Source: Anaerolineae bacterium (GTDB lineage: Bacteria > Chloroflexota > Anaerolineae > B4-G1 > SLSP01). From it: a stretch of DNA of 64,000 nucleotides. Below, one piece after another: positions 6,533 through 48,055 of this stretch (position 1 is its first letter; every line of letters begins with the position of its first letter). The translations under genes and the position numbers were made by a program. The notes beneath the pieces were generated by a model. That model was not told the origin of the DNA and made no database searches. It saw only the letters and a list, made by a program, of their open reading frames with translations. The DNA lies in NCBI GenBank assembly GCA_035420085.1, contig DAOLUH010000022.1, forward strand, positions 7,930 to 71,929, given 5' to 3'.

Positions 6533-9090
6533 GCGCCCCAAAAACTCGCCTCGTCACTCTGGGTTTGCTGCTCATTTTTTTCGCGCAGCTCCTTCAGGCG
6601 GCCAGGTCACTCTCAACGACGGTTGACGAGGGATTTCACATCACTAGCGGCTACGAGTATTTGAGGACGGGGAGGGTGCAACTCTTTGACGAGCATCCTC
6701 CCCTGGCAAAGGCACTGTTTGCGTGGCCACTCAAGTTCGTCCCCGACCTGCCCCCACCGGAAGAGACGCCAGGATACACGGAAGGCGACCTCATCACGGT
6801 TGCCCAGGCGACCGTGTTGGCGTACCAACCCATTGATCGGCTGGTGGTTGCGTGCCGAATTCCTGTGGCGCTACTGTGTGTACTCCTCGCCTGTAGTGTC
6901 TATCGGTGGACAGTTTCGATAAGCGGCAAAGCCGGTGCGCTACTGGCTCTGGCGTTTTTCACGTTTGATCCCAACGTCCTTGCCCACGGTAGCCTGGCAA
7001 CCACCGATTTGGGCAGCACAGCTTTCATCTTCTGGACGTTGTTCGCACTCTATATTTATCTGCAAGCGCCAGGCAAAGTACGCTGGTGGCTTGTCGCTGT
7101 GATGCTTGGGCTTGCGCAGCTAACCAAGCTCACCGCAATCATGCTTTTTCCCGTCGGCGGCATTGTCATTGTGCTCTATGCCGTGCTTCACGCGCCCGAT
7201 CATCGAGGGCGCGCTCTGTTGCGCGCGGTGATTTCTTATGCAGGTATGATCGGCATTGCGGCAGTGGTTGTGTGGGCAGGGTATGGCTTTGAGATACGGC
7301 CAATATCCACCATCGCCAACGGAACGCTGCCCTTGCCTGCCGCCAGCCATATCGAACGCTGGGAACGCCTGCGCGCCAATCTTGCGTATGGGCGGGAAAG
7401 CTATCTCCTCGGACAAAACCGAATGTACGGGTGGTGGCAGTATTTTCCCATCGCCTTCCTTATCAAGACCCCACTTCCAACGCTGATTTTGGCAGTTTGG
7501 GCAATTCTGCGTTTCACGTTGAAACGTTGGAACGTTGGAACGTTAAAACGTCTCACGTCTCATGCCTCACGGATCACAAGTCACACTTTATATCAGATTA
7601 TGAATATGGTTTGTCTGCTCCTCTTTCCACTCCTCTACGCCGCTTCCAGCCTGACGAGTACGATCAACATCGGCTATCGCCATCTGCTGCCGATTTTGCC
7701 GTTTCTCTACGTGGGAGTAGGGAGTAGGGAGTATGGAGTACGGAGTAAGAAGTGCAAGTTGCGAGTGACGAGTGACGAGTTAGGAATCAAGAATCAAGAA
7801 TTACCAATCCTCAATCCTCAGTCCCCCCTTACTCCTTACTCCCTACGCCTTACTCCTTACTTCTTACTTCTCGCCTGGCTCGTGGTTGGCACGCTCACAC
7901 TCAGCCCCAACTATCTCACATTTTTCAATGAAATCGCAGGCGGGCCGCAGAACGGTTGGCGTTTTCTGGCGGACTCCAACACGGATTGGGGACAGACGCT
8001 AAAGGCATTAGCCGCGTATCAACAGAAAAATGAGACAGGGCCAGTCCAGTTATCGCTCTTCACCTTTCTTGATCCGGCGACTTACGGGGTGGATTATGTT
8101 CCCATCGCGCCGATGACCGGGGTGGAGGTCATCCTGCCACAGCGTTTCAACCCGAAGCCAGGTCTTTACGCCATCAGTGCGACGACATTAGATGGGGTGC
8201 CGTTAGTCAATCCCGAAATGTACGATTGGTTCCGCTGGAATATACCCGACACACGAATCGCCAACGCACTTCACTACTACCACGTCACCACCGACGAGGT
8301 TGCCATCACCTGGATTGCGCAGTGCCAAACACCGGTCGCTCCGCTGAACGATGCTGCCATTGCCGAGGGGTTTGGCATCACAGCAGTACGGCGCGTGGAT
8401 TTCGACTGTACGAAAAGCTGGATCATCCCCAGCAATAATGCCATAACCGGTAGATACATTCTTCACGGTGCGCTACTGCAGGACACACTCAAATCGCGGT
8501 TGCATTATGCCGCTCCACCTGCTATAGACCCGTTTGTCGCCCGACGCCTCACAGCACTGACCATTGTTTATCGCCAGCGTATGTACCGCACCGAGCCAGC
8601 GTTCGCTATTTACGCACCTGCCGCCGACACTGTCATACCGTCATCCAACGCCTGGATTGCGCGCGCCGATACGCTATCCACAATGCTCACGACACGAGCA
8701 CCCATCGCTCACCCCATCACATTGGATGGCCCGCTGACCTTTTTAGGGGCAGCGGCTTATCAACAGCAAAACGTCCTCGATGTCGAAACATGGTGGATCG
8801 TGACCGATGTGCCGCCAACGCGCCCCCTGTCCATTATGGGGCATTTGCTCAATAAAGCGGGGGAAATCAAAGGCATTGCCGATGGACTGGGTATTCCGGC
8901 ACTTGCCTGGCAAACAGGCGATGTTCTTGTACAACGCCATGTGTTCCCGCTGGCCGCAGGCGAAACACACGCCAGTTACTTACTGCGCACCGGCGTGTAT
9001 TGGGCGGATGATGGAACACGGTGGCGCATCACAACTGACATGGAGGCAGATGCAATCTTTGTCGCAGTGATACCTACAATCACGCCATAA
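6529..9090 (+). CDS. GT39 / ArnT-PMT_2-like membrane glycosyltransferase with C-terminal beta-sandwich module; carries two in-frame repeat-array insertions
   Basis: 853 aa. TTVDEGFHITSGYEYL..FDEHPPLAKALFAWPL (GT-C D-E loop). DSNTDWGQ. Multiple TM helices. Residues encoded by 7516-7586 and 7713-7873 are low complexity. Confidence 0.8.
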   Translation: MSAPKTRLVTLGLLLIFFAQLLQAARSLSTTVDEGFHITSGYEYLRTGRVQLFDEHPPLAKALFAWPLKFVPDLPPPEETPGYTEGDLITVAQATVLAYQPIDRLVVACRIPVALLCVLLACSVYRWTVSISGKAGALLALAFFTFDPNVLAHGSLATTDLGSTAFIFWTLFALYIYLQAPGKVRWWLVAVMLGLAQLTKLTAIMLFPVGGIVIVLYAVLHAPDHRGRALLRAVISYAGMIGIAAVVVWAGYGFEIRPISTIANGTLPLPAASHIERWERLRANLAYGRESYLLGQNRMYGWWQYFPIAFLIKTPLPTLILAVWAILRFTLKRWNVGTLKRLTSHASRITSHTLYQIMNMVCLLLFPLLYAASSLTSTINIGYRHLLPILPFLYVGVGSREYGVRSKKCKLRVTSDELGIKNQELPILNPQSPLTPYSLRLTPYFLLLAWLVVGTLTLSPNYLTFFNEIAGGPQNGWRFLADSNTDWGQTLKALAAYQQKNETGPVQLSLFTFLDPATYGVDYVPIAPMTGVEVILPQRFNPKPGLYAISATTLDGVPLVNPEMYDWFRWNIPDTRIANALHYYHVTTDEVAITWIAQCQTPVAPLNDAAIAEGFGITAVRRVDFDCTKSWIIPSNNAITGRYILHGALLQDTLKSRLHYAAPPAIDPFVARRLTALTIVYRQRMYRTEPAFAIYAPAADTVIPSSNAWIARADTLSTMLTTRAPIAHPITLDGPLTFLGAAAYQQQNVLDVETWWIVTDVPPTRPLSIMGHLLNKAGEIKGIADGLGIPALAWQTGDVLVQRHVFPLAAGETHASYLLRTGVYWADDGTRWRITTDMEADAIFVAVIPTITP
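7516..7586. repeat. Phased tandem array: ACGTTGAA/ACGTTGGA/ACGTTGGA/ACGTTAAA (8-mers), then ACGTCTC x2, ATGCCTC, ACGGATC, ACAAGTC (7-mers); lies inside the GT39 CDS
   Basis: Read directly from the sequence. The same ACGTTGGAACGTT core occurs at 29555 and 47091. Confidence 0.85.
7713..7873. repeat. 23 consecutive phased heptamers in five sub-families (GGGAGTA, CGAGTGA, AGAATCA, TCAATCC, CTCCTTA); the outer blocks are reverse complements; lies inside the GT39 CDS
   Basis: Read directly. GGAGTA units (7713-7747) are the reverse complement of the TACTCC-containing units (7825-7866). Confidence 0.85.
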
Positions 9091-9130
9091 TGCTCGTGAT
9101 CCCAAAAAAAATCGCCCCAAGGAGAGAAGA

Positions 9131-13021: not shown

Positions 13022-14275
13022 CTACCGCACTTTTACTACGCGAAGCTCGATGCGTCCGGCAGGCAGAACGACGCCCCCAGCATCCGTCACGACAAGCCGA
13101 ACACCTGTCTCAGGGTCGTACATCCCCACGCAAAGGGTGTAATCGCCGCGCGGCATGTTACGATCCAGCGCCAGTATGTGCTCATCGCGGATGTATTGGC
13201 CCGGCTGCCACTGCGACGTCGGATAGGTCCATCCCAACGGCACACTGTCATCCTGCGCGGCGACAGCGCCATTGGCATCCAGCACATGGACAAAGACTTT
13301 GTAGTCGCCGGAGACAGCGGCGCGCGCATGCCAGTACAACGTCACCCGCAAGTGCTCGCCCGGCGCAATCCGTTCCGCTGCTTCGTAGCCGATCAGCGCC
13401 ACGGCGTCGCCAAGCGACCACGTACCGGCAGTTTCCGGCAGCGGCGGCGCATCCGTCACTGCGGGCAGATAGTGAAGCGTCGCCAGCGCCAGGTTTGCAG
13501 CGCCGACCGGCGCGCCATTACGCCGGTAGATCGTCAACGTCAGGGTGTAATCCCCGTAGGGAAGAGCGTCAGGAACGGCTAAGGTGTAATGCGAGGTCAC
13601 GGCATCTCCATCGCGGACCAAACCCGGCAGCAGGCCATCGTCCATGCTCTGCTCCGCCTGGGCATACACGCGACTTCCCTCAGCGCCGCGCAAGCGCAGC
13701 ACAAGCTTTTCTGCGTCGGATAGCGCGAAGAGGTCGCCAGACCAGGCCAGCGTCACGTACAGCGGCTCGCCTGGTTCCAGGCGCTGTCGGTTGACGCGCA
13801 CTGCGCGCAGTTCAAAGCCTGTTCCGCCAAGAGACTGTTGCACGGGTTGCCACACACCCTGATCGAATGGTGAAGGGGTATAGCCATAAATGCGGAGCGG
13901 CGTCAAAGTGCTGCCAGGAACCAGCAACGCATCAAGAAAACGATAGTGCGTCTGAAACCACGGCTGCGCCTGCGCACCATCCCATGCCACGCCCGGCCAG
14001 GCGATGACGTAATCAGGTTCAGCGCGTAACGTCGCCACCAGCGCCTCCGCAGCGCCGCCCTCCGGCACAGCAAGCGTAGAACGGTCGCCCAGGCAGCGCG
14101 CCAACGTTGCGGGCGCCGCCACCCGCTCCGCTGGCAACGCATGCGCCTCCAACCACGCCGCAAGCGCAGTGCATGGCGCATCATATTGTGTTTTACAGCC
14201 AGCAAGCAGAGATAGTGCAACGTAAAACGTAAAACGTAAAACGCGACTCGCCACTCGCCACTCGCCGCTCACCAT
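13022..14275 (-). CDS. Lipoprotein with two copies of the beta-sandwich module found at GT39 C-termini (alternative start 14293)
   Basis: Lipobox LLAG|C. Repeated ..LYW..GDY.VFVHVLD..W.PGQ..GDYTL.VGMYD motifs. The N-terminal region is encoded by a heptamer array. Confidence 0.6.
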   Translation of the reverse strand: MVSGEWRVASRVLRFTFYVALSLLAGCKTQYDAPCTALAAWLEAHALPAERVAAPATLARCLGDRSTLAVPEGGAAEALVATLRAEPDYVIAWPGVAWDGAQAQPWFQTHYRFLDALLVPGSTLTPLRIYGYTPSPFDQGVWQPVQQSLGGTGFELRAVRVNRQRLEPGEPLYVTLAWSGDLFALSDAEKLVLRLRGAEGSRVYAQAEQSMDDGLLPGLVRDGDAVTSHYTLAVPDALPYGDYTLTLTIYRRNGAPVGAANLALATLHYLPAVTDAPPLPETAGTWSLGDAVALIGYEAAERIAPGEHLRVTLYWHARAAVSGDYKVFVHVLDANGAVAAQDDSVPLGWTYPTSQWQPGQYIRDEHILALDRNMPRGDYTLCVGMYDPETGVRLVVTDAGGVVLPAGRIELRVVKVR

Positions 14276-14281
14276 TCGCCC
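14219..14281. repeat. Nine phased heptamers (AACGTAA x3, AACGCGA, CTCGCCA x2, CTCGCCG, CTCACCA, TTCGCCC)
   Basis: Read directly. The AACGTAA unit is identical to the array at 24723-24743. Confidence 0.85.
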
Positions 14282-16872: not shown

Positions 16873-17597
16873 AGCAGCATCCCCTGCACATACTTCGAGA
16901 AACGATCTACCGGCGCAGGGAAGTGCGCCAGCGCGTCGGACAACCGCCGGTAATCCACGTCCGTGGGAAACGCTTTCAACTCCACCACTAGCGGGGCTTG
17001 TGCATACGCCGGGCGCATTAGATTTGGGCAAGCTGCCGCGCGTTGATCGTAAGTGCACAGCGCAGTGTCAACCGTCAGGCGCAGCGCGTCATCCGGCGTG
17101 GCGTAATAGGCGCGCCAATAATGATTGATGAGCGTTGGGATGGCGAATACATCCAGCCATTGCCGCGCTTCCGGCAGCACGGCAGCCCGCACATCACACA
17201 CCAACGTATGCCACGTCGTCTCCGCGAGATCAAAAACCGCGGCGGCGGGACTCATCGCCTTCCACCCCACCATGCCCTGCTTGTGTTTCCGTTCGAGGTT
17301 AGCCGCCGTGATCCGCGCGGTATCTGTCCCATACCACCGCAGCCGCAGCTTGTCCCGCTCGCCGACGCCGCTGAGATTGGCGTTGAGACCCGCATAGCGC
17401 GCCGTGTCGAAGTAGACGTTGTTCACCTGGCGCGGCGGATAGGTTACGCGCCACTGCGCCGGATGAAGTCGCACCCAACTCTCCACATCCGCCAGCCAGC
17501 GCGCGGGTAGTGGAATTTTGATTTCGTAGCGGGGCGAGGTGTAAGCCAGTTGTGAGCCAGGGGTTGAGGATTGTTGGTAACTGGGCAAGTGACTCAT
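16869..17597 (-). CDS. VTC-domain (triphosphate-tunnel, polyphosphate-polymerase-like) protein; the ORF track start at 17681 lies in an octamer array
   Basis: RYEIKIPL, VNNVYFDT, RDKLRLRWYG and LERKHKQG match the bacterial VTC/CYTH-like pattern. No signal peptide. Start taken at MSHLPSYQQ (c17595-17597). Confidence 0.7.
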   Translation of the reverse strand: MSHLPSYQQSSTPGSQLAYTSPRYEIKIPLPARWLADVESWVRLHPAQWRVTYPPRQVNNVYFDTARYAGLNANLSGVGERDKLRLRWYGTDTARITAANLERKHKQGMVGWKAMSPAAAVFDLAETTWHTLVCDVRAAVLPEARQWLDVFAIPTLINHYWRAYYATPDDALRLTVDTALCTYDQRAAACPNLMRPAYAQAPLVVELKAFPTDVDYRRLSDALAHFPAPVDRFSKYVQGMLL

Positions 17598-17676
17598 TCG
17601 CTGACTCGCAGATTCGCTGATTCGCTCACTCGCTGATTCGCTCATTCGCTGACTCGCTGATTCGCTCATTCGCTCC
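17593..17676. repeat. Ten tandem octamers CTSAYTCG (CTCATTCG / CTGATTCG / CTGACTCG) spanning the CotH-1 stop and the VTC 5' region
   Basis: Read directly. GATTCGCT/CATTCGCT units recur at 45419-45446. Confidence 0.85.
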
Positions 17677-23142: not shown

Positions 23143-23850
23143 CTACGGAATGCGGATGACCTGGCCAACGTAGATCAACGAAGGGTTAGCGATGCCGTTG
23201 TATTTGGCAAGATAATACTGGCTGTAGTTGTACTTCAACGCGATGCGGAACAGGTTCTCGCCGGGTTGGACAACGTGAGTTCGCTCGCCGCCGCTCGGCG
23301 GGGCGGGGGTCGTCGGCGGCGTGGGCGGCGTGCCGCCAGATGCGCCAGGGATCGTCAGCACTTGCCCAACGTAGATCAGCGTGGCGTTGGTGATCCCGTT
23401 GGCCTTAGCAATGGCTTCTACCGTCGTGCCGTACCGCAGCGCAATACGGAAGAGGTTCTCGCCGGCCTGCACCACGTGCTTACCCGGCACGCCGGTAATG
23501 GCAGGTTCCGTCGTCGCTGCCACCGTCGCTTCAACGGCAACCGTCGTCGCTTCAACAGCAACCGTCGTCGCTTCCGTTGTAGCCGCCGCCGGCGTCGCCG
23601 CCTCGGTCGCAGCAGGCGCTGCTTCGGTGGCTGCCGGGGCCTCGGCTGTGGGAGCGGTGGTCGCCTCCACAGTGGCGGCTACGGTTGCCATCGCGGTGGT
23701 ATTGGCTTCAGCCTCTTTCATCTGGGCGGCAGCTTCATCTTCAGCCTGGATATCTTCGAGCTTAGGGGTGGCGGATTTCTTACAGCCAGCCAACGTCAAC
23801 GCGAGCACCACAAGAACAGTCAAAATCACGAACATAGCTTTGCGACTCAT
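23143..23850 (-). CDS. LysM-domain lipoprotein (two LysM repeats)
   Basis: Start at MSRKAMFVILTVLVVLALTLAGC with a GGAG RBS. Two HVVQxGENLFRIAL..YVGQV..IP LysM units. Confidence 0.85.
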   Translation of the reverse strand: MSRKAMFVILTVLVVLALTLAGCKKSATPKLEDIQAEDEAAAQMKEAEANTTAMATVAATVEATTAPTAEAPAATEAAPAATEAATPAAATTEATTVAVEATTVAVEATVAATTEPAITGVPGKHVVQAGENLFRIALRYGTTVEAIAKANGITNATLIYVGQVLTIPGASGGTPPTPPTTPAPPSGGERTHVVQPGENLFRIALKYNYSQYYLAKYNGIANPSLIYVGQVIRIP

Positions 23851-23969
23851 ACGAACTCTCCTTTCTTCTGGATTCATAGTTATTATACACACAAACACAA
23901 TTTGCAACAAGGTTTTGCTATCTTTATGAAGAATTATACTATAAAAATCGCAATAAGGGAAAGTTTTCC

Positions 23970-23997
23970 TTGACGATAATCGCAGCAGGGTTATAAT
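23970..23997 (+). promoter_or_regulatory. Sigma70-type promoter for efp: TTGACG, 16 nt, TATAAT
   Basis: -35 at 23970-23975 and -10 at 23992-23997. ATG at 24030 preceded by GGAGG. Confidence 0.5.
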
Positions 23998-24029
23998 GCA
24001 ACGTGGATAGTCTGCATGGAGGAAACAGT

Positions 24030-24587
24030 ATGATTGATGCCAATGAACTTCGCAAAGGAACAACTTTTATTTTAGACGGTGAACTTTACCAGGTTTTGGA
24101 GTACCAACACTATAAACCCGGACGGGGCAACGCCATTATCCGCACCAAGATTCGCAACTTGCGCACCGGCGCCTCAATCCCGCGCAACTTCCTGTCGGGA
24201 GATCGCTTCGAGGAAGCGCCAGTGGAACGCCGTGCGGCGCAATATCTGTACGAAGATGGCGAGGCTTTCTATTTTATGGATGCCCATACCTACGATCAGG
24301 TTCACGTGACCGCCGATATGATCGGCGACAAAGCCGGATTCTTGAAAGAGGGTATGGAAGTCACCCTGACCGTTTTGGAGAACGAGGTGCTTGATGCAGA
24401 CCTCCCGACTTCGGTGGAACTCGAAGTGGTCGAGTCTGAGATGGCCGTGGCCGGGGATACGGCTACCGGCGCGAGCAAAATCGTCGTCTGCGACACTGGC
24501 TTGAAAGTCCAGGTGCCCTTGTTCGTCAATGTCGGCGATACCATCCGCGTTGACACCCGCAGCGGAGAGTACCTGACCCGCGTATAA
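24030..24587 (+). CDS. efp: Elongation factor P
   Basis: MIDANELRKGTTFILDGELYQVLEYQHYKPGRGNAIIRTKIRNL. 185 aa. Confidence 0.95.
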   Translation: MIDANELRKGTTFILDGELYQVLEYQHYKPGRGNAIIRTKIRNLRTGASIPRNFLSGDRFEEAPVERRAAQYLYEDGEAFYFMDAHTYDQVHVTADMIGDKAGFLKEGMEVTLTVLENEVLDADLPTSVELEVVESEMAVAGDTATGASKIVVCDTGLKVQVPLFVNVGDTIRVDTRSGEYLTRV

Positions 24588-24676
24588 CCCGTCGTAGAGG
24601 GTTCATTCAGCAATCCACGGGAAGGTTGTACGGCCCCTGCACAACCCTCGCCAGGTCTACTGAACAAATGATCATC

Positions 24677-24712
24677 GTGCGGTACGCTCCCGGGCGTGCC
24701 GCACTCGTTTTA
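24677..24712 (+). terminator. Candidate intrinsic terminator after efp
   Basis: GTGCGGTACGC-TCCCGG-GCGTGCCGCAC stem with one mismatch, followed by TCGTTTTAT. Confidence 0.45.
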
Positions 24713-24722
24713 TAAAGACTGA

Positions 24723-24799
24723 AACGTAAAACGTAAAACGTAATGCGCGAAGAATCTCTTACGTTTTACGCTTTACATTTTACGCCTTACGCTTTACGT
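24723..24799. repeat. Eleven phased heptamers forming a hairpin: AACGTAA x3, spacer, then CTTACGT/TTTACGC/TTTACAT/TTTACGC/CTTACGC/TTTACGT
   Basis: Read directly. The arms are reverse complements. Confidence 0.85.
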
Positions 24800-24806
24800 T
24801 TAAGAG

Positions 24807-26498
24807 ATGATGATGGTGGATTTCAGTCCTTATGCAGGACGCTGGGTGGCGTTGACGGAAGCCAAAACGGTCGCCGGCGTCGGGATGACGCCCGAAGCGG
24901 CGCGCTACGCTGCCCGCGCGGCGCGTCCGAAAGAGCGATTGCGGCTCGCTTGGATCGCGCCGCATCCACCGTACATTCCCCTGCCGGAGTGGCCATTAGC
25001 GCCACTCAAGGCGATCCTCCCTACAGAAGGGATCTGGTTGGCAGGCGGACCGGTGCGCGATTTGTTGTTAGGGCGCGACCTTCACGATTGGGATTTCGCC
25101 GTCGTAGAGAACGGGTGTGGGCTGGCGCGCAGGGTTGCCAACGCGCTAAAGGCCGCCTATTATCCGCTGGATGAGGAACGAGACACCGGGCGCGTCGTCG
25201 TGACCGATCCGGCTACCCACAACCCGGTCACACTGGATTTCGCCTCGTTGCGCGGCGCGACGCTGGAGGAGGACCTGCGGCGGCGCGACTTCACCATCAA
25301 CGCGATGGCGCTCACCCTTGACGGCGCGCTCATTGACCCGACCCACGGACAGACCGACCTCGACGCCGGCCTCATCCGTATGACCGGGCCAGCCAGCTTC
25401 AAAGATGACCCGGCGCGATTGCTGCGCGCCGTGCGCCAGGCGAATACTTTGCACTTCCGCCTCGATCCACGAACCGAGATGGCGATTCGCGCGCAGGCGC
25501 TCTCCATCACCACCGTCGCCCCTGAGCGCATCCGCGCCGAGTTGCTCCAAATCCTGCACGACGTTTCGGCGGCTTATAGCCTGCAAGCTCTGGCCAACGT
25601 AGGACTGTTGAGCCACATTCTGCCGGAAATTCAGGCGCTGCAAGCGGTCCAGCAATCTCAGCCCCATCACTACGCGGATGCCCGCGTCCACACCCTGGCC
25701 GCCATTGCCGCAGTAGAAGGAATACTGGCCCTCCTCAAGGGCGAGCCGCGTCCCTCGTCAACCGACAACTATGCGCCGGTTCCCTCCTGGGCGTGGCCTA
25801 TGCTCGCCGATGTCTTGCTTCCGTTTCAGTCGCCACTCCTGAAATACCTGGAAACACCCGTCAACGCGGACATGCCGCGCGCGGATCTCCTCAAGTGGGG
25901 CGCGCTGTTCCATGACGTGGGCAAGGCCGCCACTCGCACCGTGGATGACGACGGGCGCAGCCATTTCTACGGCCATGCCGAAGCCGGTGCGGCATCAGCG
26001 GAAGCGCGGTTGGAGGCGCTGCGCTTTCCAGGAAAGGCTATTGCGTTCATCAACATCCTGGTGGCAGAACATATGCGGCTGGCCGGCGCCGACAAATCCG
26101 CGCCGACGCGGCGCGCCGCCTACCGCTTCTACCGCGCCACGGGGGAGGTTGGGGTGAGTGTTGTGCTGTTGGCACTGGCCGATGCGCTGGCGGTATGGGG
26201 ACGCGGACTGCCCCAAAATCGCTGGCGCGCACTGCTACAGCACGCCAACGTGTTGCTGAAATCGTACTTCGAGCAGCCAACCGAGATCATCGCGCCGCCG
26301 CCTCTCCTCAACGGGCACGATCTGATCGCGTTGGGCATCCGGCAAGGGCCGCAGATTGGACATATCCTGGAAGCTCTGCGCGAGGCCCAAGCCGTGGGCG
26401 AGATCAACACCAGAGAAGCCGCCGAGGCTTTCGTCAACACAATTCTGGTGGAAGGAGTCTCCATGCGGGATTCCACGTCAACGAGGACCAAAATTTAG
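24807..26498 (+). CDS. cca: CCA-adding tRNA nucleotidyltransferase / poly(A) polymerase family with HD domain and ~70-aa N-terminal extension
   Basis: GGPVRDLLLGRDLHDWDFAV, RRDFTINAM, HD-domain HDVGK. Confidence 0.8.
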   Translation: MMMVDFSPYAGRWVALTEAKTVAGVGMTPEAARYAARAARPKERLRLAWIAPHPPYIPLPEWPLAPLKAILPTEGIWLAGGPVRDLLLGRDLHDWDFAVVENGCGLARRVANALKAAYYPLDEERDTGRVVVTDPATHNPVTLDFASLRGATLEEDLRRRDFTINAMALTLDGALIDPTHGQTDLDAGLIRMTGPASFKDDPARLLRAVRQANTLHFRLDPRTEMAIRAQALSITTVAPERIRAELLQILHDVSAAYSLQALANVGLLSHILPEIQALQAVQQSQPHHYADARVHTLAAIAAVEGILALLKGEPRPSSTDNYAPVPSWAWPMLADVLLPFQSPLLKYLETPVNADMPRADLLKWGALFHDVGKAATRTVDDDGRSHFYGHAEAGAASAEARLEALRFPGKAIAFINILVAEHMRLAGADKSAPTRRAAYRFYRATGEVGVSVVLLALADALAVWGRGLPQNRWRALLQHANVLLKSYFEQPTEIIAPPPLLNGHDLIALGIRQGPQIGHILEALREAQAVGEINTREAAEAFVNTILVEGVSMRDSTSTRTKI

Positions 26499-26500
26499 GC

Positions 26501-26577
26501 CACAGAGAGCACAGAGTTCGCAGAGTTTTTTTCTCTGCGCTCTCTGTGTACCCGGTGGCTATTTTGAGAGGAGGCGT
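26501..26577 (+). repeat. CACAGAGnn / CTCTGTG 9-mer hairpin (26501-26548) followed by a conserved SD-bearing leader GGTGGCTATTTTGAGAGGAGGCGT
   Basis: Starts 2 nt after the cca stop and ends at the ATG at 26578. A near-identical cassette lies at 31306-31390 and a partial copy at 31224-31262. Confidence 0.8.
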
Positions 26578-28125
26578 ATGAGAGCACAGACGTATCGGCT
26601 TACCTGGTTGATTGCACTCCTCCTGCTCCTGGGATGCCAGACTTCCGGGCCGGCTACCCCTGCGGCAACGCTGCCTTCTGCATCCCCGGCAGCGACGCGC
26701 ACTCCCGTCCCCACCTGGACGCCCACCGCCACCGCTATGCCGGCAACGCCGCTCCCCACACGGACGGCGACCGCGACGCCGCGCCCTACTGCGACCCTCA
26801 CCCCGTTCCCGGTGTGCGCCGCCGTCTGGCAACGCCCGTTCCCCAAAACTGCGCCGCTGCGCGACGTGGTCCTCTTCACCAGCGCCATCCCCGCGCCGTT
26901 TGCGCCGGCATCGGCCACCCAGAGAAGCAGCGACACACACCTGTGGGCCGTCGCCGCCGATGGACGCCGCAGCGAACGGCTTTCTGCCGGCGGAAACATC
27001 CTGTATATCCGCCCCACAACCGGCGCAGTCTCGGTTGATCTTCTGGTCACCCGGCCATTTTCGCTAGAGACAGAGTTTGTCCGCCAGCACGTGCTCAGCC
27101 CCGCATGTACGAAGTCCGAGGTTCCATGCGACAAGTTTACGTTTTCACCCGGCGGCGCGTGGGTGGCCTATTTTTGGGGCGCAGAAATTTGTGGACGCGG
27201 TATTGCTGCTCTGAATTTGCGCACCGACGAGACGCTCATCCTCGTCGAAAAAGGCGGGCACAGTTTCACCTTCCTCTCCGACGAGACCATGCTCATCGGC
27301 GCCGGACATTGCGAAGGCGGGATTTTGATGACCGTGGACCTGCAGAGTGGCGCGGAGACCACCCTCGGCGCAAGCAGCGCGGTGCAGTGGAACGCGACAC
27401 GGACGGCCTTCGCCGTCAACGCCCATCCTTATATGGGCTGGGGAAGCGACGTGTGGGGGTACAACGTCGCCCAAGCCAGGCATTTCATCGCCGCGTCAGA
27501 GGAAGTCGCTGCCGAGGAGCTACAAACGGTTTGGACGCCTGCCGGCGATTATCTGCTGTACCAACAGCGCACGATTTCCTTTACCACACCCACCAAAGCC
27601 GAACTCACCCTCAGCCCGCAGCAGATTATCATCGCCAACGTTGCCACCGGCGAACAGCGGACCTTGCTCACCGATCCAGCCTATGACTATCACTTGTGTA
27701 CAGCTTACGACGTATGTCCGTGGGAAGGCGACTACATCGAAGTCCGGCGGATTCCTTACCAGCAGCGCGTCTTCGATCAGGAACCCGATTTCTACACTGA
27801 TGCAGTCAATTGCGCTGTGTATGGCTTCCGCTGCCCTGATCCGGTGGAGCGCTTCGCCCTCAACTGGCGCACCGGCGAACTCGTACCCTGGGATCAACGG
27901 CCCGCAGCCCTGGAGACGCCGACTGTCACACCGACGCCGACGCCAGCCGCAACGGCAGCGACGCCCAGCGCGCCGGATTTAGCGCGTCCGGCCTTCTTCA
28001 CTGCGCCGGACGGGACTTACGCGCTGCACCTCGGCGCGGACGAACGCAGCTTGTGGTGCATTCCCGCCGCCGGGGAACCGGTATTGTGGGTCAACAACGG
28101 CGCGAATTTCACCTATATCCCATAG
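26578..28125 (+). CDS. Lipoprotein with PT-rich linker and PD40/TolB-like beta-propeller repeats
   Basis: Start at MRAQTYRLTWLIALLLLLGC (lipobox) after GAGGAGG. FSPGGAWVAYF and WTPAGDYLLYQ repeats. The longer track ORF (26356) overlaps cca. Confidence 0.65.
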   Translation: MRAQTYRLTWLIALLLLLGCQTSGPATPAATLPSASPAATRTPVPTWTPTATAMPATPLPTRTATATPRPTATLTPFPVCAAVWQRPFPKTAPLRDVVLFTSAIPAPFAPASATQRSSDTHLWAVAADGRRSERLSAGGNILYIRPTTGAVSVDLLVTRPFSLETEFVRQHVLSPACTKSEVPCDKFTFSPGGAWVAYFWGAEICGRGIAALNLRTDETLILVEKGGHSFTFLSDETMLIGAGHCEGGILMTVDLQSGAETTLGASSAVQWNATRTAFAVNAHPYMGWGSDVWGYNVAQARHFIAASEEVAAEELQTVWTPAGDYLLYQQRTISFTTPTKAELTLSPQQIIIANVATGEQRTLLTDPAYDYHLCTAYDVCPWEGDYIEVRRIPYQQRVFDQEPDFYTDAVNCAVYGFRCPDPVERFALNWRTGELVPWDQRPAALETPTVTPTPTPAATAATPSAPDLARPAFFTAPDGTYALHLGADERSLWCIPAAGEPVLWVNNGANFTYIP

Positions 28126-28135: not shown

Positions 28136-29545
28136 GTGTTGATGAAAAAGTTATTGTTTGTTGGTCTTGTACTTCTGTTGATCGTCACATCCCTCACCGG
28201 CTGCGAGACGCCCACCATCGCCCCCACCCCCACGCCGACGCGCACGCCGGTTCTCCCCACCCCCACACCGACGCACACCCCCACCCCCACACCGACCGCC
28301 ACCCCCTCTATCACCCCCAGCCCCACGCCAACGCTGCCGCCGGGACTGCTCTTGCCGCCGCAGCCAGCGGAGTTGCCGGGCTGGCCGGCGTTGCCTGTTG
28401 ATCTCTACTTTATGCGCGATGGGAAAATCTGGTCGTGGTTGGCGGAAGGCGGCGCAGTGGAAAGTGTGCCAGTTGCGGTGGAAGGGGAGACCGTGCTCAC
28501 CTACCAGATAACGCAGGACGAACGCTACGTGCTGTATGTGACCGACGCTGGCAAACTGTACGTTTTCGACCGCGCCCAGTGGCAGCACACGCACATCCCC
28601 ACCGCGGGCCGGTTGATTGACGACCGGGGCATTTATTTCGACGTGACGCCGGACACACGTTACCTGGTCTACCTGGCATGGGGCATCCAACCAACAGCCG
28701 AGATGACCACCAATAACACGCTCATCGGGACTATCCTGACAATCGAATTGCCCAAACTGCGGCAGGCACAGCGAACATTGGGGTTTTGCGGCAGCGACGG
28801 CGATGCTGGCTGTATGGGCGTCCACCTCGCGCCAGATGGCAACCTTGTCGCCTACGAAGATGGCGCAGGGTTGTGGCTGACCGCGCTCGACAGCCCCGAA
28901 CCCCGCCTGGCACTGCCTTCCTCCAGCACACCGCCCTGGCGATTCAAGGCCTGGTCGCCCAACAGCCGTTGGTTAATCCTGGAAGTGCAATCGGCGGAAG
29001 GGACGCTCATAGGACTGCTCAATGTAGCAACAGGACAAATCACCCCCATCGGCGACGTGGCCTGTGTGGAAGGCTGCGACATCGGGCTGAGTTGGGGAAC
29101 GCAAAGCCTGTGGCTGTTTACCGATACGCCACAGCAGGGCTGCCTCTTCCAGATACAGCCAGCCTTCGGCGATACGCCAATGAGTATGCCTTACGAGATG
29201 TGTGCGCTAGGTGAGTGGGCACTGCACCCCGCGTCTCCGTTGGCGCTGCCCGACGGGTGGGTCGCGTTCGTGCATCGCGGCTGCGGCGAGGGTTGCCCCG
29301 GCCCGGCGCCTGGCCTCTACTTCCTGGGTCCCGACGAAGCCGCGCATCCCATCGCCTTGCTTGACCGCAACGACGGTTCCGCCCTGTGGGCGCCCGACGG
29401 TTCGGCCTTCCTCTACTTCGACGCGGAGAATCGCCCCTATCGCCTGGGTGTGACCGGCGGCGCAGGTTTCTGGGATGTGAGCCGCGCCCTCGCAGGCGCA
29501 CACACATTCCACTGGGGTACACGCCTTGAGTCGCCGGAACAGTGA
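28136..29545 (+). CDS. Lipoprotein with PT-rich linker and PD40-like beta-propeller repeats
   Basis: MKKLLFVGLVLLLIVTSLTGC lipobox (the ATG at 28142 is likely the true start). LAPDGNLVAYE, WSPNSRWLILE and WAPDGSAFLYF. Confidence 0.65.
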   Translation: MLMKKLLFVGLVLLLIVTSLTGCETPTIAPTPTPTRTPVLPTPTPTHTPTPTPTATPSITPSPTPTLPPGLLLPPQPAELPGWPALPVDLYFMRDGKIWSWLAEGGAVESVPVAVEGETVLTYQITQDERYVLYVTDAGKLYVFDRAQWQHTHIPTAGRLIDDRGIYFDVTPDTRYLVYLAWGIQPTAEMTTNNTLIGTILTIELPKLRQAQRTLGFCGSDGDAGCMGVHLAPDGNLVAYEDGAGLWLTALDSPEPRLALPSSSTPPWRFKAWSPNSRWLILEVQSAEGTLIGLLNVATGQITPIGDVACVEGCDIGLSWGTQSLWLFTDTPQQGCLFQIQPAFGDTPMSMPYEMCALGEWALHPASPLALPDGWVAFVHRGCGEGCPGPAPGLYFLGPDEAAHPIALLDRNDGSALWAPDGSAFLYFDAENRPYRLGVTGGAGFWDVSRALAGAHTFHWGTRLESPEQ

Positions 29546-29546: not shown

Positions 29547-29622
29547 ACGTTTGAACGTTGGAACGTTCAAACGTGTTAACGTTGAAACATTCCAACACTG
29601 GCGTTTGGCGTTTGACGTTTGA
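29547..29622. repeat. Phased array ACGTTTGA/ACGTTGGA/ACGTTCAA/ACGTGTTA/ACGTTGAA/ACATTCCA (8-mers), then ACACTGG/CGTTTGG/CGTTTGA/CGTTTGA (7-mers)
   Basis: Read directly. Begins 2 nt after the stop at 29543-29545. Confidence 0.85.
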
Positions 29623-29640
29623 CATAAGCCGTTGTATAAA
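29612..29640 (+). promoter_or_regulatory. Candidate promoter TTGACG, 17 nt, TATAAA. The -35 lies inside the heptamer array and the predicted TSS is at or next to the ATG at 29648 (leaderless).
   Basis: -35 at 29612-29617 and -10 at 29635-29640. No SD between the -10 and the ATG. Confidence 0.4.
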
Positions 29641-29647
29641 ACACGGC

Positions 29648-31223: not shown

Positions 31224-31262
31224 TCTCAGCACTCTGTATCCTCGGTGGCTATTTTCAAGGAG
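31224..31262 (+). repeat. Partial copy of the CTCTGTG hairpin arm plus leader (CTCTGTATCCTCGGTGGCTATTTTCAAGGAG)
   Basis: Aligns to 26540-26572 and 31354-31386. No start codon follows it. Confidence 0.6.
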
Positions 31263-31305: not shown

Positions 31306-31390
31306 CGCAGAGCACGCGGAGAGCGCAGAGTATTTTTTATTTTTCTCTGTGAACTCTGTGTTCTCTGTGGCTATTTAGAGAGGAGGCGCT
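31306..31390 (+). repeat. CGCAGAGnn x3, T-rich loop, CTCTGTGnn x3 hairpin plus leader GCTATTTAGAGAGGAGGCGCT, ending at the ATG at 31391
   Basis: Read directly. Second full copy of the cassette seen at 26501-26577. Confidence 0.8.
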
Positions 31391-34106: not shown

Positions 34107-34181
34107 GTAGACGGTAGACAGTAAACGGTAGACAGGGGATTCTTCCTGTCTACCGTTTTTGTTTGCTGTCTACGGTTCTAC
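34107..34181. repeat. GTAGACG/GTAGACA/GTAAACG/GTAGACA heptamers, loop, then TGTCTAC-type heptamers; starts at the first nt after the pfp stop
   Basis: Read directly. Confidence 0.85.
34123..34165 (+). terminator. Intrinsic terminator built from the heptamer array: AAACGGTAGACA / TGTCTACCGTTT 12-bp stem followed by TTGTTTG
   Basis: Perfect 12-bp stem, 12-nt loop and a T-rich tail, 17 nt after the pfp stop. Confidence 0.6.
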
Positions 34182-34225
34182 GACCGATGGTTTGAATACT
34201 TCAATAGCCCGGGCTTTTCTGCTCC

Positions 34226-34253
34226 CGTCTACTGTCTACCGTCTACTGTCTAC
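34226..34253. repeat. CGTCTAC/TGTCTAC x4 heptamers, the inverted copy of 34107-34134; overlaps the xylB stop codon
   Basis: Read directly. The TAG stop (c34250-34252) lies in the last unit. Confidence 0.85.
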
Positions 34254-35746
34254 CATAAAGCGTGATACGTGGGCGCGAGGGCGGGATAGAGCGCGGCAAA
34301 TGTATCGGCGAGCGCCGCATAACGCGCAACATTCTCCGGGTTGGGCGTGACCACCTCATCGGCGTATCGCACGGCCTGGGCGGCCGCGTCTGCCACATCT
34401 GTGTAGACGCCGCTCCCCACCCCGGCCAGCAACGCCGCCCCCACCGCCGCCGCCTCGACCGTCCGCGTCTGGTACAGCGGGTGATTGAACATATCCGCCT
34501 GCAATTGCAGCCACAATGGATGCTGCGTCGCGCCGCCCGACGCGATGATGCGCTCCGGCGCTACGCCGAGATCGAGCATCAGCTCAAGCCCCTGGCGCAT
34601 CCCGAAGACAACGCCCTCCATCACCGCCCGCGCCATGTGCGCGCGCCCGTGGCGCAGCGTCAGCCCGACAAAGCTGCCGCGTGCGCGCGAATCCATGTGC
34701 GGCGTGCGCTCGCCCGCGAGATACGGCTGGAAGAACAATCCTTCCGCGCCGGGCGGGATAGTTGCCGCGGCGTCGGCTATCGCCTGGTATGAAAGACCGG
34801 ACATCACACTGTCGCGCAGCCACTTGAGCGCAAGCCCCGCCGCGAGCATCGCCGATTCGAGGTGCCACATATCTGGCATAGCGTGGCAGAAGCAATGCAG
34901 GCGCGCCTGTGGATCATAAGCCGGCTGCGCGCTGGGGGCGAAAAGCTGCCCGCCGGTGCCGATGGTGGATGAGAGCACGCCCGGGGCGACGACGCCGTGT
35001 CCCACAGCCTGCATCGCCTGATCGCTGCCGCCGTAGATGACGGGCGTGCCAGGACGCAGACCCGTCGCCGCCGCGATCTCCGGCAACAACCCGCCTGCCA
35101 CTGCCGCCGACCCGAACACGGGCGGGAGCACTCGCGCATCGAGCGCCAATGCAGCGAGCAGCGGCGCGCTCCAGCAACGATTCGCCGTGTCGAAGAGCAA
35201 CGTTGAGGAGGCGTCGCTTGGCTCCGCGCCGATCTCGCCGGTGAAACGGTAACGGACGTAATCTTTCGGCAACAACAAATACGTGGTTGCCGCAGCGACG
35301 TCGGCTGCATGCTCGCGCAGCCAGAGCCACGTCGCCAACATAAAGCCGGTTGCCAGCGGATTCGCCGTCCACGCGGCCAACTGTGCGCGCCCGATGCGCG
35401 CATACACCTCCGCCACCTGCGCCGCCGACCGCTGATCCGCCCAGATGATTGCCGGACGCAGCGCGCGCCCGTGTGCATCGAGGCATACCGTTCCGTGCAT
35501 CTGCCCGGAGAAACCGATAGCCTGCACCTGATCTGCCGGGATGTCTGCCGCGACCACGGCGCGACGCAGCGTGTCCAACGCCGCCTCCAGCCACGTCTCT
35601 GGGTTCTGCTCGGCCCACCCGGGGCGCGGCGTTTCCACGGCGTATTCGCGCGCTGCCATGCCTAACAGCGCACCATCCGGGCTGATCATCACTGTTTTGG
35701 CACTGGATGTTCCGATGTCAATGCCTATCAAAGTCGGGGTTGCCAT
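34250..35746 (-). CDS. xylB: Xylulokinase (FGGY carbohydrate kinase)
   Basis: LIGIDIGTSSAKTV, GWAEQNPETW and FGGY C-terminal motifs. 498 aa. Confidence 0.85.
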   Translation of the reverse strand: MATPTLIGIDIGTSSAKTVMISPDGALLGMAAREYAVETPRPGWAEQNPETWLEAALDTLRRAVVAADIPADQVQAIGFSGQMHGTVCLDAHGRALRPAIIWADQRSAAQVAEVYARIGRAQLAAWTANPLATGFMLATWLWLREHAADVAAATTYLLLPKDYVRYRFTGEIGAEPSDASSTLLFDTANRCWSAPLLAALALDARVLPPVFGSAAVAGGLLPEIAAATGLRPGTPVIYGGSDQAMQAVGHGVVAPGVLSSTIGTGGQLFAPSAQPAYDPQARLHCFCHAMPDMWHLESAMLAAGLALKWLRDSVMSGLSYQAIADAAATIPPGAEGLFFQPYLAGERTPHMDSRARGSFVGLTLRHGRAHMARAVMEGVVFGMRQGLELMLDLGVAPERIIASGGATQHPLWLQLQADMFNHPLYQTRTVEAAAVGAALLAGVGSGVYTDVADAAAQAVRYADEVVTPNPENVARYAALADTFAALYPALAPTYHALW

Positions 35747-37254: not shown

Positions 37255-37318
37255 CATGACAACACAATTTACATTTCACGTTTCACGCTCTGCCCATCTT
37301 TTTCATTTGGAGGATTAA

Positions 37319-39106: not shown

Positions 39107-39152
39107 CCATCACCGATTACCAATCACCACTCACCCATAAAGGAGGAAAACG

Positions 39153-40205: not shown

Positions 40206-40264
40206 GGACAGGATGAACAGGATTTTTCATTGTCTCCATCCTGAAAATCCTGTTAATCCTGTCA
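40206..40264. repeat. 9-mer hairpin array GGACAGGAT/GAACAGGAT, loop, ATCCTGAAA/ATCCTGTTA/ATCCTGTCA
   Basis: Read directly. Lies between the stop at 40198-40200 and the ATG at 40274. Confidence 0.8.
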
Positions 40265-43722: not shown

Positions 43723-43771
43723 GTGAGTTTTTTGTCAACGGATTGAGCAGACTTGAACGGATTAGGAATTT

Positions 43772-43806
43772 GACTTTCGACGTTGGACTTTAGACTTTCG
43801 ACTTTC
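43772..43806. repeat. Heptamer array GACTTTC/GACGTTG/GACTTTA/GACTTTC/GACTTTC immediately upstream of the degV SD
   Basis: Read directly. Confidence 0.8.
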
Positions 43807-44681: not shown

Positions 44682-45382
44682 TGGCCTCTCTGGAAACGAC
44701 ATCTGCGCTGCGGTGGGCATGGCTGCGCGGTGTGACCCGGGCCACGCCGATTGTAATGGGTTACGTTCCCATCGGCTTCGCGTATGGCGTACTCGCGCAG
44801 CAGGCGGGCCTTTCAATCCTGAACACCGTGCTGATGTCGCTGCTGGTGTACGCGGGGTCGGCGCAGTTGATCGCGGTGGGGCTGTTTGCGACCGGCGCGC
44901 CGGCCCTGTCGCTCATCCTGACGACGTTTGTGGTGAATCTGCGCCACCTGCTGATGTCGGCGGCGCTGTCGCCATATATGCAGCACTGGCGCAAAGGCGA
45001 GCTGGCCGCTTTCGCCTACGAGCTGACCGACGAGAGTTTCGCCGTCCACATCGCGCAGTTTGCCGAAAGCGCGTCGCCCAAAGCCGAAGTCTTCGCCGTC
45101 AACGTCACCGCGCAGCTCTCGTGGATCCTGGGATCGTGGCTCGGCGCAGTCGCCGGACAGTTGATCGCCGACGTGAAGCCGTTGGCGCTGGACTACGCCC
45201 TGCCGGCGATGTTCATCGCGCTGCTGGTGATGCAGATCAAGGACAAGCGGCACATCATCGTCGCCGCCGCCACCGGCCTGCTTGCCGTTGTGTTGGCTCT
45301 GGGCGGATTGGGACACTGGGCCGTCATCATCGCCGCACTTATCGGCGCAACGCTCGGCGTGGTGCTGGAGATTGGGGATTAG
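44681..45382 (+). CDS. azlC: AzlC-family branched-chain amino acid exporter subunit
   Basis: Start MASLETT (TAATG overlap with the degV stop). GYVPIGFAYGVLAQQAGLS. 233 aa. Confidence 0.8.
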   Translation: MASLETTSALRWAWLRGVTRATPIVMGYVPIGFAYGVLAQQAGLSILNTVLMSLLVYAGSAQLIAVGLFATGAPALSLILTTFVVNLRHLLMSAALSPYMQHWRKGELAAFAYELTDESFAVHIAQFAESASPKAEVFAVNVTAQLSWILGSWLGAVAGQLIADVKPLALDYALPAMFIALLVMQIKDKRHIIVAAATGLLAVVLALGGLGHWAVIIAALIGATLGVVLEIGD

Positions 45383-45446
45383 GGATTAGGGATTAGGGAT
45401 TGGGGATTGGGGAATGGGAATTCGCTGATTCGCTCATTCGCTGATT
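45370..45446. repeat. GATTGGG/GATTAGG x3/GATTGGG x2/GAATGGG heptamers, then AATTCGCT/GATTCGCT/CATTCGCT octamers; fills the whole azlC-azlD spacer
   Basis: Read directly. Covers the azlC stop (45380-45382) and ends at the azlD ATG (45447). Confidence 0.85.
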
Positions 45447-47090: not shown

Positions 47091-47117
47091 AACGTTGGAA
47101 CGTTCAAACGTTCAAAC
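47091..47117. repeat. Octamer array AACGTTGG/AACGTTCA/AACGTTCA starting right after the phosphatase stop
   Basis: Shares the 19-mer ACGTTGGAACGTTCAAACG with 29555-29573. Confidence 0.8.
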
Positions 47118-48042: not shown

Positions 48043-48055
48043 TGGCGATATTCGT

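Follow-up and report, generated by a model that had tools for sequence, protein, structure and literature searches.

What are the tandem arrays of 7-, 8- and 9-nt units that mark gene boundaries along a 64-kb stretch of Anaerolineae DNA (hereafter the window, meaning the whole stretch)? The function of heptamer arrays has reportedly been a question since their first description in cyanobacteria in 1990, the original account of these short tandemly repeated repetitive (STRR) sequences being, it is said, that of Mazel and colleagues. A first-pass annotation of the window, made from its letters alone, raised the possibility of a lineage-specific repeat system and offered as candidates a protein-binding array, a terminator or insulator, a slippage-prone contingency element and an element like a MITE (miniature inverted-repeat transposable element). 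The arrays are likely long simple-sequence repeats (SSR), mostly of 7 nt and also of 8 and 9 nt, which form the Anaerolineae counterpart of cyanobacterial STRR and of GGGNATC-type repeats, change by slippage and are mostly a tolerated by-product. A "lineage-specific repeat system" is not what they represent, since heptamer-dominated long SSR are a class already described. The lineage, uncultured and known here from metagenome assemblies only, carries a very dense, multi-unit version of such arrays. Material for comparison exists in the form of strains 95–97% identical to the window and about a dozen syntenic species.

Reality and Density of the Arrays

Arrays were called by Tandem Repeats Finder (TRF) and by a separate period scan with one score threshold. 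In the window the scan detects 11 arrays of period 7, 4 of period 8 and 1 of period 9, with almost none in local shuffles, and zero arrays at periods 4–6 and 10–13. Head-to-tail units of 5–11 nt, the mark of long SSR, are therefore present beyond chance, with 7 nt as the favored period. The window has 17.2 period-7 arrays per 100 kb, its syntenic relatives have 10.7 and a set of 69 more distant Anaerolineae loci has 1.9, so that the impression of a real, non-random and lineage-enriched set of arrays is confirmed. Nine of the eleven period-7/8 loci of the period scan fall in the roughly 11% of the window outside long open reading frames (ORFs), a clear non-coding bias, and both arrays within an ORF retain its frame. 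TRF recovers every locus of the first-pass list except the two shortest, 37267-37287 and 48052-48065, which lie below its threshold and are discernible by eye, and it adds one array absent from that list (39109-39135).

The arrays are not artifacts of assembly, a possibility the annotation had allowed for, because five independent assemblies reproduce them. Two sample assemblies from the Joint Genome Institute (JGI) are identical to the window over 23807-27498, a span that includes two arrays, and arrays are also carried by five contigs from three Logan runs, which represent a strain 95–97% identical to the window. Two exclusions made at first sight hold as well. The arrays are not CRISPR (clustered regularly interspaced short palindromic repeats), whose repeats of 24–48 nt alternate with unique spacers; here the units are 7–9 nt, contiguous and without spacers. 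Nor are they classic repetitive extragenic palindromic (REP) sequences, as arm length, loop and copy number vary at every locus and between species. In the window, an Rfam 15 scan at the gathering score and a scan for tRNA and transfer-messenger RNA each return 0 matches. The genes are those of an ordinary chromosome: efp, a CCA-adding-enzyme-like gene, PFK, a sugar kinase, DegV, AzlC, alkaline phosphatase and GT39 glycosyltransferases. The nearest EF-P sequences are 82–92% identical and come from metagenome-assembled genomes (MAGs) labeled Anaerolineae, Chloroflexota or Thermoflexus. Eleven loci (L001–L011) are syntenic with the window over 12.7-35.7 kb and serve below as the main set of relatives.

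Unit-Step Change between Strains and Species

Whole units are gained and lost in the arrays. Strain contig L207, aligned over 8 kb at 95.6% identity, departs from the window by just three net indels, each within an array: +7 nt at 24797, +24 nt at 29547 and −7 nt at 29599. Compared with L203 (97.3% identity over 9.5 kb), the sole indel is −24 nt, three units, in the array at 17593, and the array at 14219 differs by substitutions only. All clean indels in the intergenic spacers compared lie inside arrays, and all are whole multiples of the unit. Copy number differs between close strains at 4 of 7 comparable loci, which bears out the suspicion of slippage-prone, strain-variable elements.

In syntenic Anaerolineae species the same sites are again occupied by arrays, whose copy numbers differ and whose units are sometimes of another kind. 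At the site orthologous to 14219, L005 and L008 have ACGTRAT heptamers with GATTCGCY 8-mers; at that of 17593, L011 has ten copies of GGGGATT and six of GATTCGCY; at that of 31306, L005 retains the left arm, followed by GACTTTS heptamers. The site at 29547 is the most instructive. Its two hairpin arms hold 1–5 copies across species, the units being GTAGACR/YGTCTAC in L001, L002, L004, L006 and L007 and AACGTT 8-mers in some other relatives, and L005 and L008 have GC hairpins without repeats. The presence there of array hairpins of two types or of ordinary GC hairpins suggests that a stem-loop of some kind is kept. The arms homogenize independently, as in L004 and L006, where GTAGACA on the left faces CGTCTAC on the right.

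The array singled out as the exemplar follows the efp terminator and precedes the CCA-adding-enzyme-like gene, which starts at 24807.

24677..24714, + strand: canonical efp intrinsic terminator with a 12-bp GC-rich stem and T-run, not a member of the array family (terminator scan)
24723..24806, + strand: exemplar array called by TRF, an imperfect hairpin of three AACGTAA (24723-24743), a 14-nt loop and six NTTACGN units from 24758, with arms 81–89% complementary

Its layout and the complementarity of its arms match the first description exactly. The single 7-nt register also attributed to it holds within one arm, or within one graded array, and does not hold between arms built of different units. 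A register shared across both hairpin arms was considered as a meaningful property and rejected, because, for two different units, the choice of cutting point within the unit determines their relative phase. The efp terminator is conserved in L001–L011, and this separate, canonical upstream signal indicates that the exemplar is not the terminator of efp. Relative to the window, strain L207 has one additional unit (CGTTTTA, the +7 nt noted above), L210 (81% identity) has one left unit fewer, L002 has three right units only, and most other relatives have none. Between window and strain, the flanks are identical at 165 of 165 bases and the array columns at 80 of 91. Between window and L210, identity is 66% in the array, 62% in the neutral spacer and 82% in the efp terminator. 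There is no sign of purifying selection on the exemplar, which is the fastest-changing part of its spacer.

Unit-step indels, graded arrays and the rapid change of the exemplar together form the signature of slippage-type repeats rather than of conserved functional sequence. Graded arrays in a single register result from point mutation, which creates variant units, followed by local amplification of these. Replication slippage would produce the changes in unit number, and template switching between inverted arms may also contribute.

Placement at Gene Boundaries

The arrays outside coding sequence, with the elements associated with them, are the following in addition to the exemplar. Those for which no strand is given are not assigned to one.

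14219..14281: AACGTAA x3.6, then CTCGCCA-type x5, in one register (TRF; lag-7 autocorrelation 0.80); occupies the spacer from the stop of the (−) gene 14281-17058 toward the next (−) gene
17593..17676: about ten 8-mers of CTSAYTCG/GATTCGCT type, arranged in a 24-nt (3-unit) superperiod (TRF period 24, 89% matches; lag-24 autocorrelation 0.88); includes the stop codon of the (−) gene 17666-19213 and may include the start of the next (−) gene
26501..26548, + strand: 9-mer hairpin of CRCAGAGnn x3, a T7 loop and CTCTGYGnn x2–3, 2 nt past a stop codon
29547..29598, + strand: ACGTTKGA/AACGTTSA 8-mers with self-complementary AACGTT cores, 1 nt past a stop codon (TRF; palindrome)
29599..29623, + strand: TGGCGTT/CGTTTGA heptamers x3.3 (TRF)
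31306..31369, + strand: 9-mer hairpin of CGCAGAGnn x3, a T-rich 14-nt loop and CTCTGTGnn x3, followed by a ribosome-binding site and ATG 31391
34107..34254: GTAGACR x4, an inner hairpin with T-run, and inverted YGTCTAC x4 at 34226-34253 (TRF); occupies a convergent-gene spacer, both outer arrays touching or including a stop codon
37267..37287, + strand: weak ATTTACA/TTTCACG x3, 12 nt past a stop codon (by eye)
39109..39135, + strand: ATCACCA-type heptamers x3.9 in the spacer ahead of the ribosome-binding site of gene 39153 (TRF)
40206..40264, + strand: 9-mer hairpin of ACAGGATnn x2, a loop and ATCCTGnnn x3, then A8 (lag-9 autocorrelation 0.58); 5 nt after a stop codon and 9 nt ahead of the next ATG
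43772..43806, + strand: direct array of GACTTTC x5 ending at the ribosome-binding site of the DegV-family gene at 43821 (TRF)
45370..45446, + strand: GATTRGG (GGGGATT type) x7, then GATTCGCT 8-mers x3 (TRF; spacer listing); provides the azlC TAG stop (45380-45382) and terminates on ATG 45447
47091..47117, + strand: AACGTTSA x3 (TRF), ending 3 nt short of a possible TTG start at 47121; the TAA stop 47088-47090 falls within the preceding unit variant CGTTAAAA
48052..48065, + strand: CGTTTGA x2 (promoter scan, sequence)

Fourteen arrays lie in tandem or convergent spacers, and none lies in the window's 4–5 divergent spacers. The claim that arrays sit exactly at gene boundaries stands in part: nine of the 14 intergenic arrays include a stop codon or start at most 5 nt from one (14281, 17666, 26498, 29545, 34106, 34250, 40200, 45380 and 47090), and those at 45370 and 47091 end at or near starts. 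It fails for the two loci that are not intergenic, 7516-7586 and 7713-7873, which lie inside the ORF of a GT39 glycosyltransferase. At 17666, 34250, 45380 and 47088 the units of the array themselves supply the stop. Most units carry a stop triplet (TAA, TAG or TGA), examples being GTAGAC, AACGTAA, CGTTTGA, GATTAGG and GCTGATT, and a period of 7 nt displays that triplet in all three frames within 21 nt, so that an ORF meeting an array ends at once. The apparently exact start of arrays at stop codons thus follows largely from the inability of ORFs to run into stop-bearing arrays. Arrays persist only where extra DNA is tolerated, that is, in tandem and convergent spacers and in two loops of the glycosyltransferase, a conserved membrane protein.

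At 17480-17681 on the (−) strand, the gene of a VTC-domain protein starts GTG AAG ATT CCA in relatives, and the window has ATC at the start codon. Its ORF in the window extends into the 8-mer array, where MSESASQR is encoded three times and in-frame ATGs occur. A gene start within the array is therefore possible and could account for both the 24-nt superperiod and the 24-nt strain indel at this locus.

In-Frame Arrays in a Glycosyltransferase Gene

The GT39/PMT_2 ORF (6529-9090, + strand) runs uninterrupted through 853 codons and holds two arrays.

7516..7586, + strand: about 4.5 copies of ACGTTGRA 8-mers grading to ACGTCTC-type 7-mers (TRF), variable loop 1 of the predicted protein
7713..7873, + strand: 23 heptamers in one register, GGGAGTA > CGAGTGA > GAATCAA > CAATCCT > CTCCTTA, variable loop 2 of the predicted protein

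Across the 23 heptamers of the second array, the lag-7 autocorrelation is 0.76, and the unit drifts through its five types. The outer sub-arrays are complementary, so that the whole would fold as a single long hairpin (minimum free energy, MFE, −66.7 kcal/mol; z −3.6 to −4.7). In protein alignment A1, two hypervariable insertions occur at the array sites, that of the 7516 array at columns ~348-393. In close homologs the insertions are 7-residue repeats (RIANGER, HASRITH, LLLTPYS), which is what three heptamers encode, and distant homologs are without the insert. The L003 ortholog carries ACGTTGRA three times at the site equivalent to 7516. A strain 92–97% identical differs by 8 indels in the 7713 array, a net change of −57 nt that retains the frame; the strain block holding the gene has 12 indels in all, 8 of them within this array. 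The sole unit TAG that would be in frame in the 7713 array reads TAT, and the ORF is open in L003, L203 and L206. The two arrays are probably translated as variable loops of the GT39 protein. Being in frame and without stops, they are the exception that supports the explanation of array placement by stop triplets.

Hairpins, Terminators and Promoter Elements

Seven loci are inverted array pairs that fold with z-scores of −2.8 to −9.5 (7713, 24723, 26501, 29547, 31306, 34107 and 40206). The exemplar folds on the + strand at −24.0 kcal/mol (z = −3.7), the 26501 hairpin at an MFE of −25.8 kcal/mol (z = −4.8) and the 31306 hairpin at −37.1 kcal/mol (z = −9.0). The arms at 34107 are 92–96% complementary (−68.6 kcal/mol, z = −9.2) and those at 40206 are 91% complementary (−27.2 kcal/mol, z = −8.0). 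The remaining loci are direct arrays that do not fold, as in the GACTTTC array at 43772 (z = 0.0). The inverted pairs probably form hairpins of 15–35 bp where relatives have ordinary hairpins, and they may serve as intercistronic or 3′-end stem-loops in transcript-end protection, processing or insulation.

The sole array match of the terminator scan is the stem at 34123-34158 with its T-run TTTTTGTTTG; this inner hairpin of the 34107 locus is, judged by its sequence, a true terminator. Terminator-like matches show no excess of array hairpins, and the total of matches in the terminator and promoter scans is below the shuffle mean. Some direct arrays are co-opted as putative −35 boxes. The last units of the array at 29599 give a −35-like TTGACG (29612-29617), followed after 17 nt by TATAAA (29635-29640) and by the ATG at 29648. 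All 10 syntenic relatives with coverage of the site conserve this block (29612-29650), and the 7 nt lost in L207 are upstream of the −35, so that the −35/−10 spacing is unchanged. Because the ATG lies only 7 nt past the −10, the arrangement suggests a leaderless mRNA for the G5-domain gene at 29648. Similarly, the CGTTTGA doublet at 48052 gives a −35-like TTGACG (48056), then 16 nt and TATCAT.

The 26501 hairpin is the core of a cassette of about 95 nt (~26488-26577; 95–116 nt) whose final part is the ribosome-binding site and start of the gene that follows. The cassette is 77–80% identical to its paralog at 31306, ribosome-binding site included, and GGTGG...AGGAG direct repeats flank both. 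It is present in the window and its strain and absent from the two closest species (L002 and L210), in which the genes abut or overlap. A near-identical leader, GGTGGCTATTT(T)GAGAGGAGG, with a ribosome-binding site precedes two unrelated genes (26554-26574 and 31366-31386). A third, partial copy lies upstream of the 31306 hairpin (31243-31262), and the copies resemble direct repeats flanking a copied cassette.

Other repeats of the window are distinct from the array family. A second hairpin family, dispersed and non-tandem, is built on CTTGCGAAGGT / ACCTTCGCAAG (48010-48043 and 61185-61238) and has 4 exact motif matches in the window, where 0.06 would be expected; the copy at 48010, with its 15-bp stem and T-run, is terminator-like, and further copies occur just downstream of the efp terminator in L001, L005 and L009. 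At 54087-54122, a perfect 16-bp hairpin with a 4-nt loop fills a convergent-gene spacer and has no tandem units. The repeats at 23524-23574 (21-nt unit x2.4) and 28255-28326 (CCCCAC hexamers x12), whose periods are multiples of 3, fall in stretches of coding appearance (a LysM-protein gene; a later ORF) and have no relation to the 7–9-mer family. The GC content is 0.48–0.55 at 48000-52000 and at 6000-10000, against ~0.61 elsewhere. No arrays occur between 48.1 and 64 kb of the window, and the stretch at 48-52 kb may be acquired DNA.

Unit Recurrence and Alternative Explanations

More than ten different units occur in the window, and several are found at two loci or more. The recurrence at distant loci that had been noticed from the letters is exact for (AACGTAA)3, identical at 14219 and 24723 with a similar fourth unit at both, and for the 19-mer ACGTTGGAACGTTCAAACG, common to 29555 and 47092 and with a copy at 7532 that differs at one position; at 17.6 and 45.4 kb it takes the form of GATTCGCT-type 8-mers. 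The GGGGATT+GATTCGCT composite is also found in L011 at a non-orthologous site, the GACTTTC unit in L005 at a different site, and GTAGAC arrays also downstream of the gene of the 34107 locus in L005 and L006. Some of the more distant loci have vocabularies of their own, such as TAATGCG in L036 and L044 and some 50 8-mers in L063. In the last of these, a more distant Anaerolineae contig, about 19 GACACGGW are followed by about 29 CCGCGTCM (254-656, ~400 nt in total), and the two blocks are complementary but for a single position in each unit, where one strand would form a G-U pair. Units of the AACGGATT type, 9–10-mers such as TCAACGGATTGAGCAGACTTGAACGGATTAGG, form another recurrent group that is too degenerate for the period scan (43736-43768, and also in L005, L008, L011 and L110).

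A metagenome scan for (GTAGACR)3 matches at least 120 contigs with a GC content of 31–72%, a range which shows that the unit is not confined to one lineage. The multi-unit vocabulary is common to only a subset of these contigs, among them L110, L112, L155 and L160. For GTAGACRGTAGACRGTAGAC, about 16 of the 80 metagenome matches listed (L083–L162) lie within 100 nt of a contig end. Arrays break short-read assemblies, and counts from MAGs therefore underestimate them; the practical consequence is visible in the fifth or so of the matches listed for this one array that fall at contig ends.

Several observations weigh against slippage with neutral tolerance as a full account. A few units recur at non-orthologous loci and in species with ~72% coding identity, and the GTAGACR hairpin occupies one site in five species and also follows a second gene; a small recurring vocabulary is not what pure neutral slippage predicts. 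The window and its sister species L002 differ in array type at one site, and each type is common to more distant relatives. Three observed steps measure 24 nt, three units, rather than 8 nt. The stem-loop role is itself weakened by the terminator scans, in which six of the seven hairpins have no 3′ U-tract, and by the comparison of sense and antisense folding (a test of G-U against A-C asymmetry), which gives no consistent sign of selection at the RNA level: the sense fold is favored at 31306 and in the inner hairpin of 34107, the antisense fold at 24723 and 26501, and the others are equal. Recurrence of units could come from ectopic copying, from a mutational preference for certain units or from selection by reader proteins.

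The last of these would make the arrays multivalent platforms for one or more lineage-specific DNA- or RNA-binding proteins that read 7–9-nt units, within a regulatory or nucleoid-organizing network. Such platforms would account for the small vocabulary common to non-orthologous loci and to species and for exact 19–21-mers at distant loci. They would also fit the direct arrays at 43772, 45370 and 47091, whose ends meet or adjoin start codons in the manner of TAACTGA repeats (PMC4679880). However, the exemplar evolves at the rate of a neutral spacer and faster than its flanks, orthologous sites gain, lose or swap arrays without visible consequence, the GGGGATT+GATTCGCT composite occurs in both orientations relative to transcription, more than ten units would require many readers, and no candidate protein was identified; platforms of this kind are unlikely, though with a small chance that deserves mention. 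The wider proposition, that the recurring units GTAGACR, AACGTAA/TTTACGY, GATTCGCY, GGGGATT, AACGTTSA, CRCAGAGnn and ACAGGATnn are kept across Anaerolineae genera by dedicated reader proteins or by lineage-specific copying, is doubtful to the same degree. If it were true, the arrays would punctuate the spaces between genes throughout the genome and would also be a source of new protein loops. Copying in another form, in which all arrays, or the hairpin types alone, would be cassettes or small mobile elements of a non-autonomous kind, copied between spacers in the manner of MITE, REPIN (paired, hairpin-forming REP sequences) or Rickettsia palindromic elements (RPE), draws on the 26501 cassette, on the GGGGATT+GATTCGCT composite at two unrelated loci and on the four-unit likeness between 14219 and 24723. 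The in-frame insertions are also reminiscent of what has reportedly been seen with RPE. As an account of the family it is quite improbable, because there is no fixed length, no fixed terminus and no consistent target duplication, because most arrays are at orthologous positions and differ by unit steps rather than by presence or absence of a whole element, and because arms homogenize independently. The early comparison with MITEs thus fails for the family and retains some force for the 26501 cassette, which, present or absent between species, similar to 31306 and flanked by direct repeats, looks copied.

There is only a slight chance that the hairpin arrays are simply the Rho-independent terminators of the organism. 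Seven hairpins begin 0–5 nt past stop codons or are located between genes, and 34123-34158 with TTTTTGTTTG is a textbook terminator, but the terminator reading of the first-pass annotation fits this one hairpin of seven, the other six being those without a U-tract. Ordinary terminators exist besides (efp at 24677; 48010), the exemplar being downstream of one that is separate and conserved, and direct arrays cannot form hairpins. Still more remote is the reading as contingency loci, in which copy number would switch or tune neighboring genes by phase variation. Variation between close strains at four of the seven comparable loci speaks for it. Against it, the neighbors are housekeeping genes (efp, CCA-adding enzyme, PFK, sugar kinase, DegV, AzlCD), the indel at 29599 leaves the −35/−10 spacing as it was, and coding indels of 57 and 24 nt preserve the frame; on these grounds the suggestion of contingency elements is best abandoned. 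The same argument has been made against phase variation for GGGNATC repeats (PMC4692102). Repeats that change by slippage and are retained where they do little harm remain the preferred reading, and most of the array sequence is probably a tolerated by-product rather than a dedicated system.

Comparison with Known Repeat Systems

Several described systems are close to these arrays. In heterocystous or filamentous cyanobacteria, 7-bp STRR that can form hairpins lie between co-transcribed genes such as hupS-hupL, and roles in transcript stability or translational coupling have been suggested (PMC2670836). The arrays of the window likewise have tandem units of 7 bp in several families, mostly intergenic and occasionally intragenic, with the capacity for hairpins between genes. 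They differ in belonging to a high-GC (61%) member of the Anaerolineae, within the Chloroflexota, in having different units except for GGGGATT, in mixing 8-mers and 9-mers with heptamers and in the inverted pairs that are the rule at about half of the loci.

The repeats GGGAATC of Xanthomonas and GGGGA(C/T)T of Nostoc are found no further than 50 bp from a stop or start codon, some of them as inverted pairs, and the Nostoc GGGGATT repeats form G-quadruplexes (G4) in vitro (Rehm et al., 2015, PMC4692102). The same GGGGATT/GGGATTA unit is present in the window at 45370-45418, where 7 GATTRGG units satisfy the G-quadruplex motif (at least 4 tracts of G3–4), a statement that applies to this locus only. 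Further likenesses are the position between aligned ORFs, at most 50 bp from a stop or start or overlapping the stop, the rarity between divergent ORFs, the variation of length at conserved sites among related genomes, the inverted pairs (seen in Xanthomonas) and the lack of a link to surface or phase-variable genes. In contrast to the GGGNATC-type repeats, the G-rich unit is one of more than ten in the window, most of the others are unable to form G-quadruplexes, and no preference for four units is seen.

The TAACTGA repeats of marine Beggiatoaceae are found upstream of start codons, and a network read by protein, regulatory or nucleoid-organizing, has been proposed as their role (MacGregor, 2015, PMC4679880). 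Like them, the arrays of the window include direct heptamer repeats in spacers, many immediately upstream of starts and some in ORFs, and the hosts are in both cases filamentous, uncultured organisms. In the Beggiatoaceae the unit is always the same and always in one orientation, a pattern suggestive of a reader protein, whereas the window has many units in both orientations, many of them paired as hairpins. Heptanucleotides are the commonest long SSR, and polymerase slippage has been proposed as their origin (Mrazek, 2007, as reviewed in PMC4679880). Searches of the literature for heptamer or heptanucleotide repeats in Chloroflexi or Anaerolinea returned nothing, so that no report for Anaerolineae came to light, and a broader search gave only the (GATAGRA)n satellites of Chloroflexus aurantiacus (Subirana and Messeguer, 2019, PMC6749651). 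These belong to the same phylum and are heptamer-derived tandem arrays scattered over the genome; unlike the present arrays, they come from the Chloroflexia, form a single unit family described as transposed satellites, and have no reported analysis of hairpins or gene boundaries.

REP sequences and the bacterial interspersed mosaic elements (BIME) and REPIN formed from them in Enterobacteria and Pseudomonas share an intergenic, hairpin-forming and dispersed character and a position between co-directional or convergent genes, and the known roles of REP/BIME include protection of mRNA 3′ ends. In contrast to the variable-copy tandem 7–9-mers, REPs are fixed palindromic units of 20–40 nt spread by the REP-associated tyrosine transposase (RAYT). 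Palindromic elements in frame within protein genes of Rickettsia, the RPE, were reportedly described by Ogata and colleagues in 2000. As in the glycosyltransferase loops, palindromic repeat DNA is there said to be tolerated in frame in conserved proteins, to which it adds surface loops; by these accounts RPE are dispersed, 100–150 nt long and fixed in sequence, whereas the inserts of the window are local heptamer arrays that change by slippage. The kind of repeat is therefore already known, and the interest of the present case lies in how dense the arrays and how varied their units are, in clean polymorphism by unit steps, in the account of placement by stop codons and in the in-frame coding insertions.

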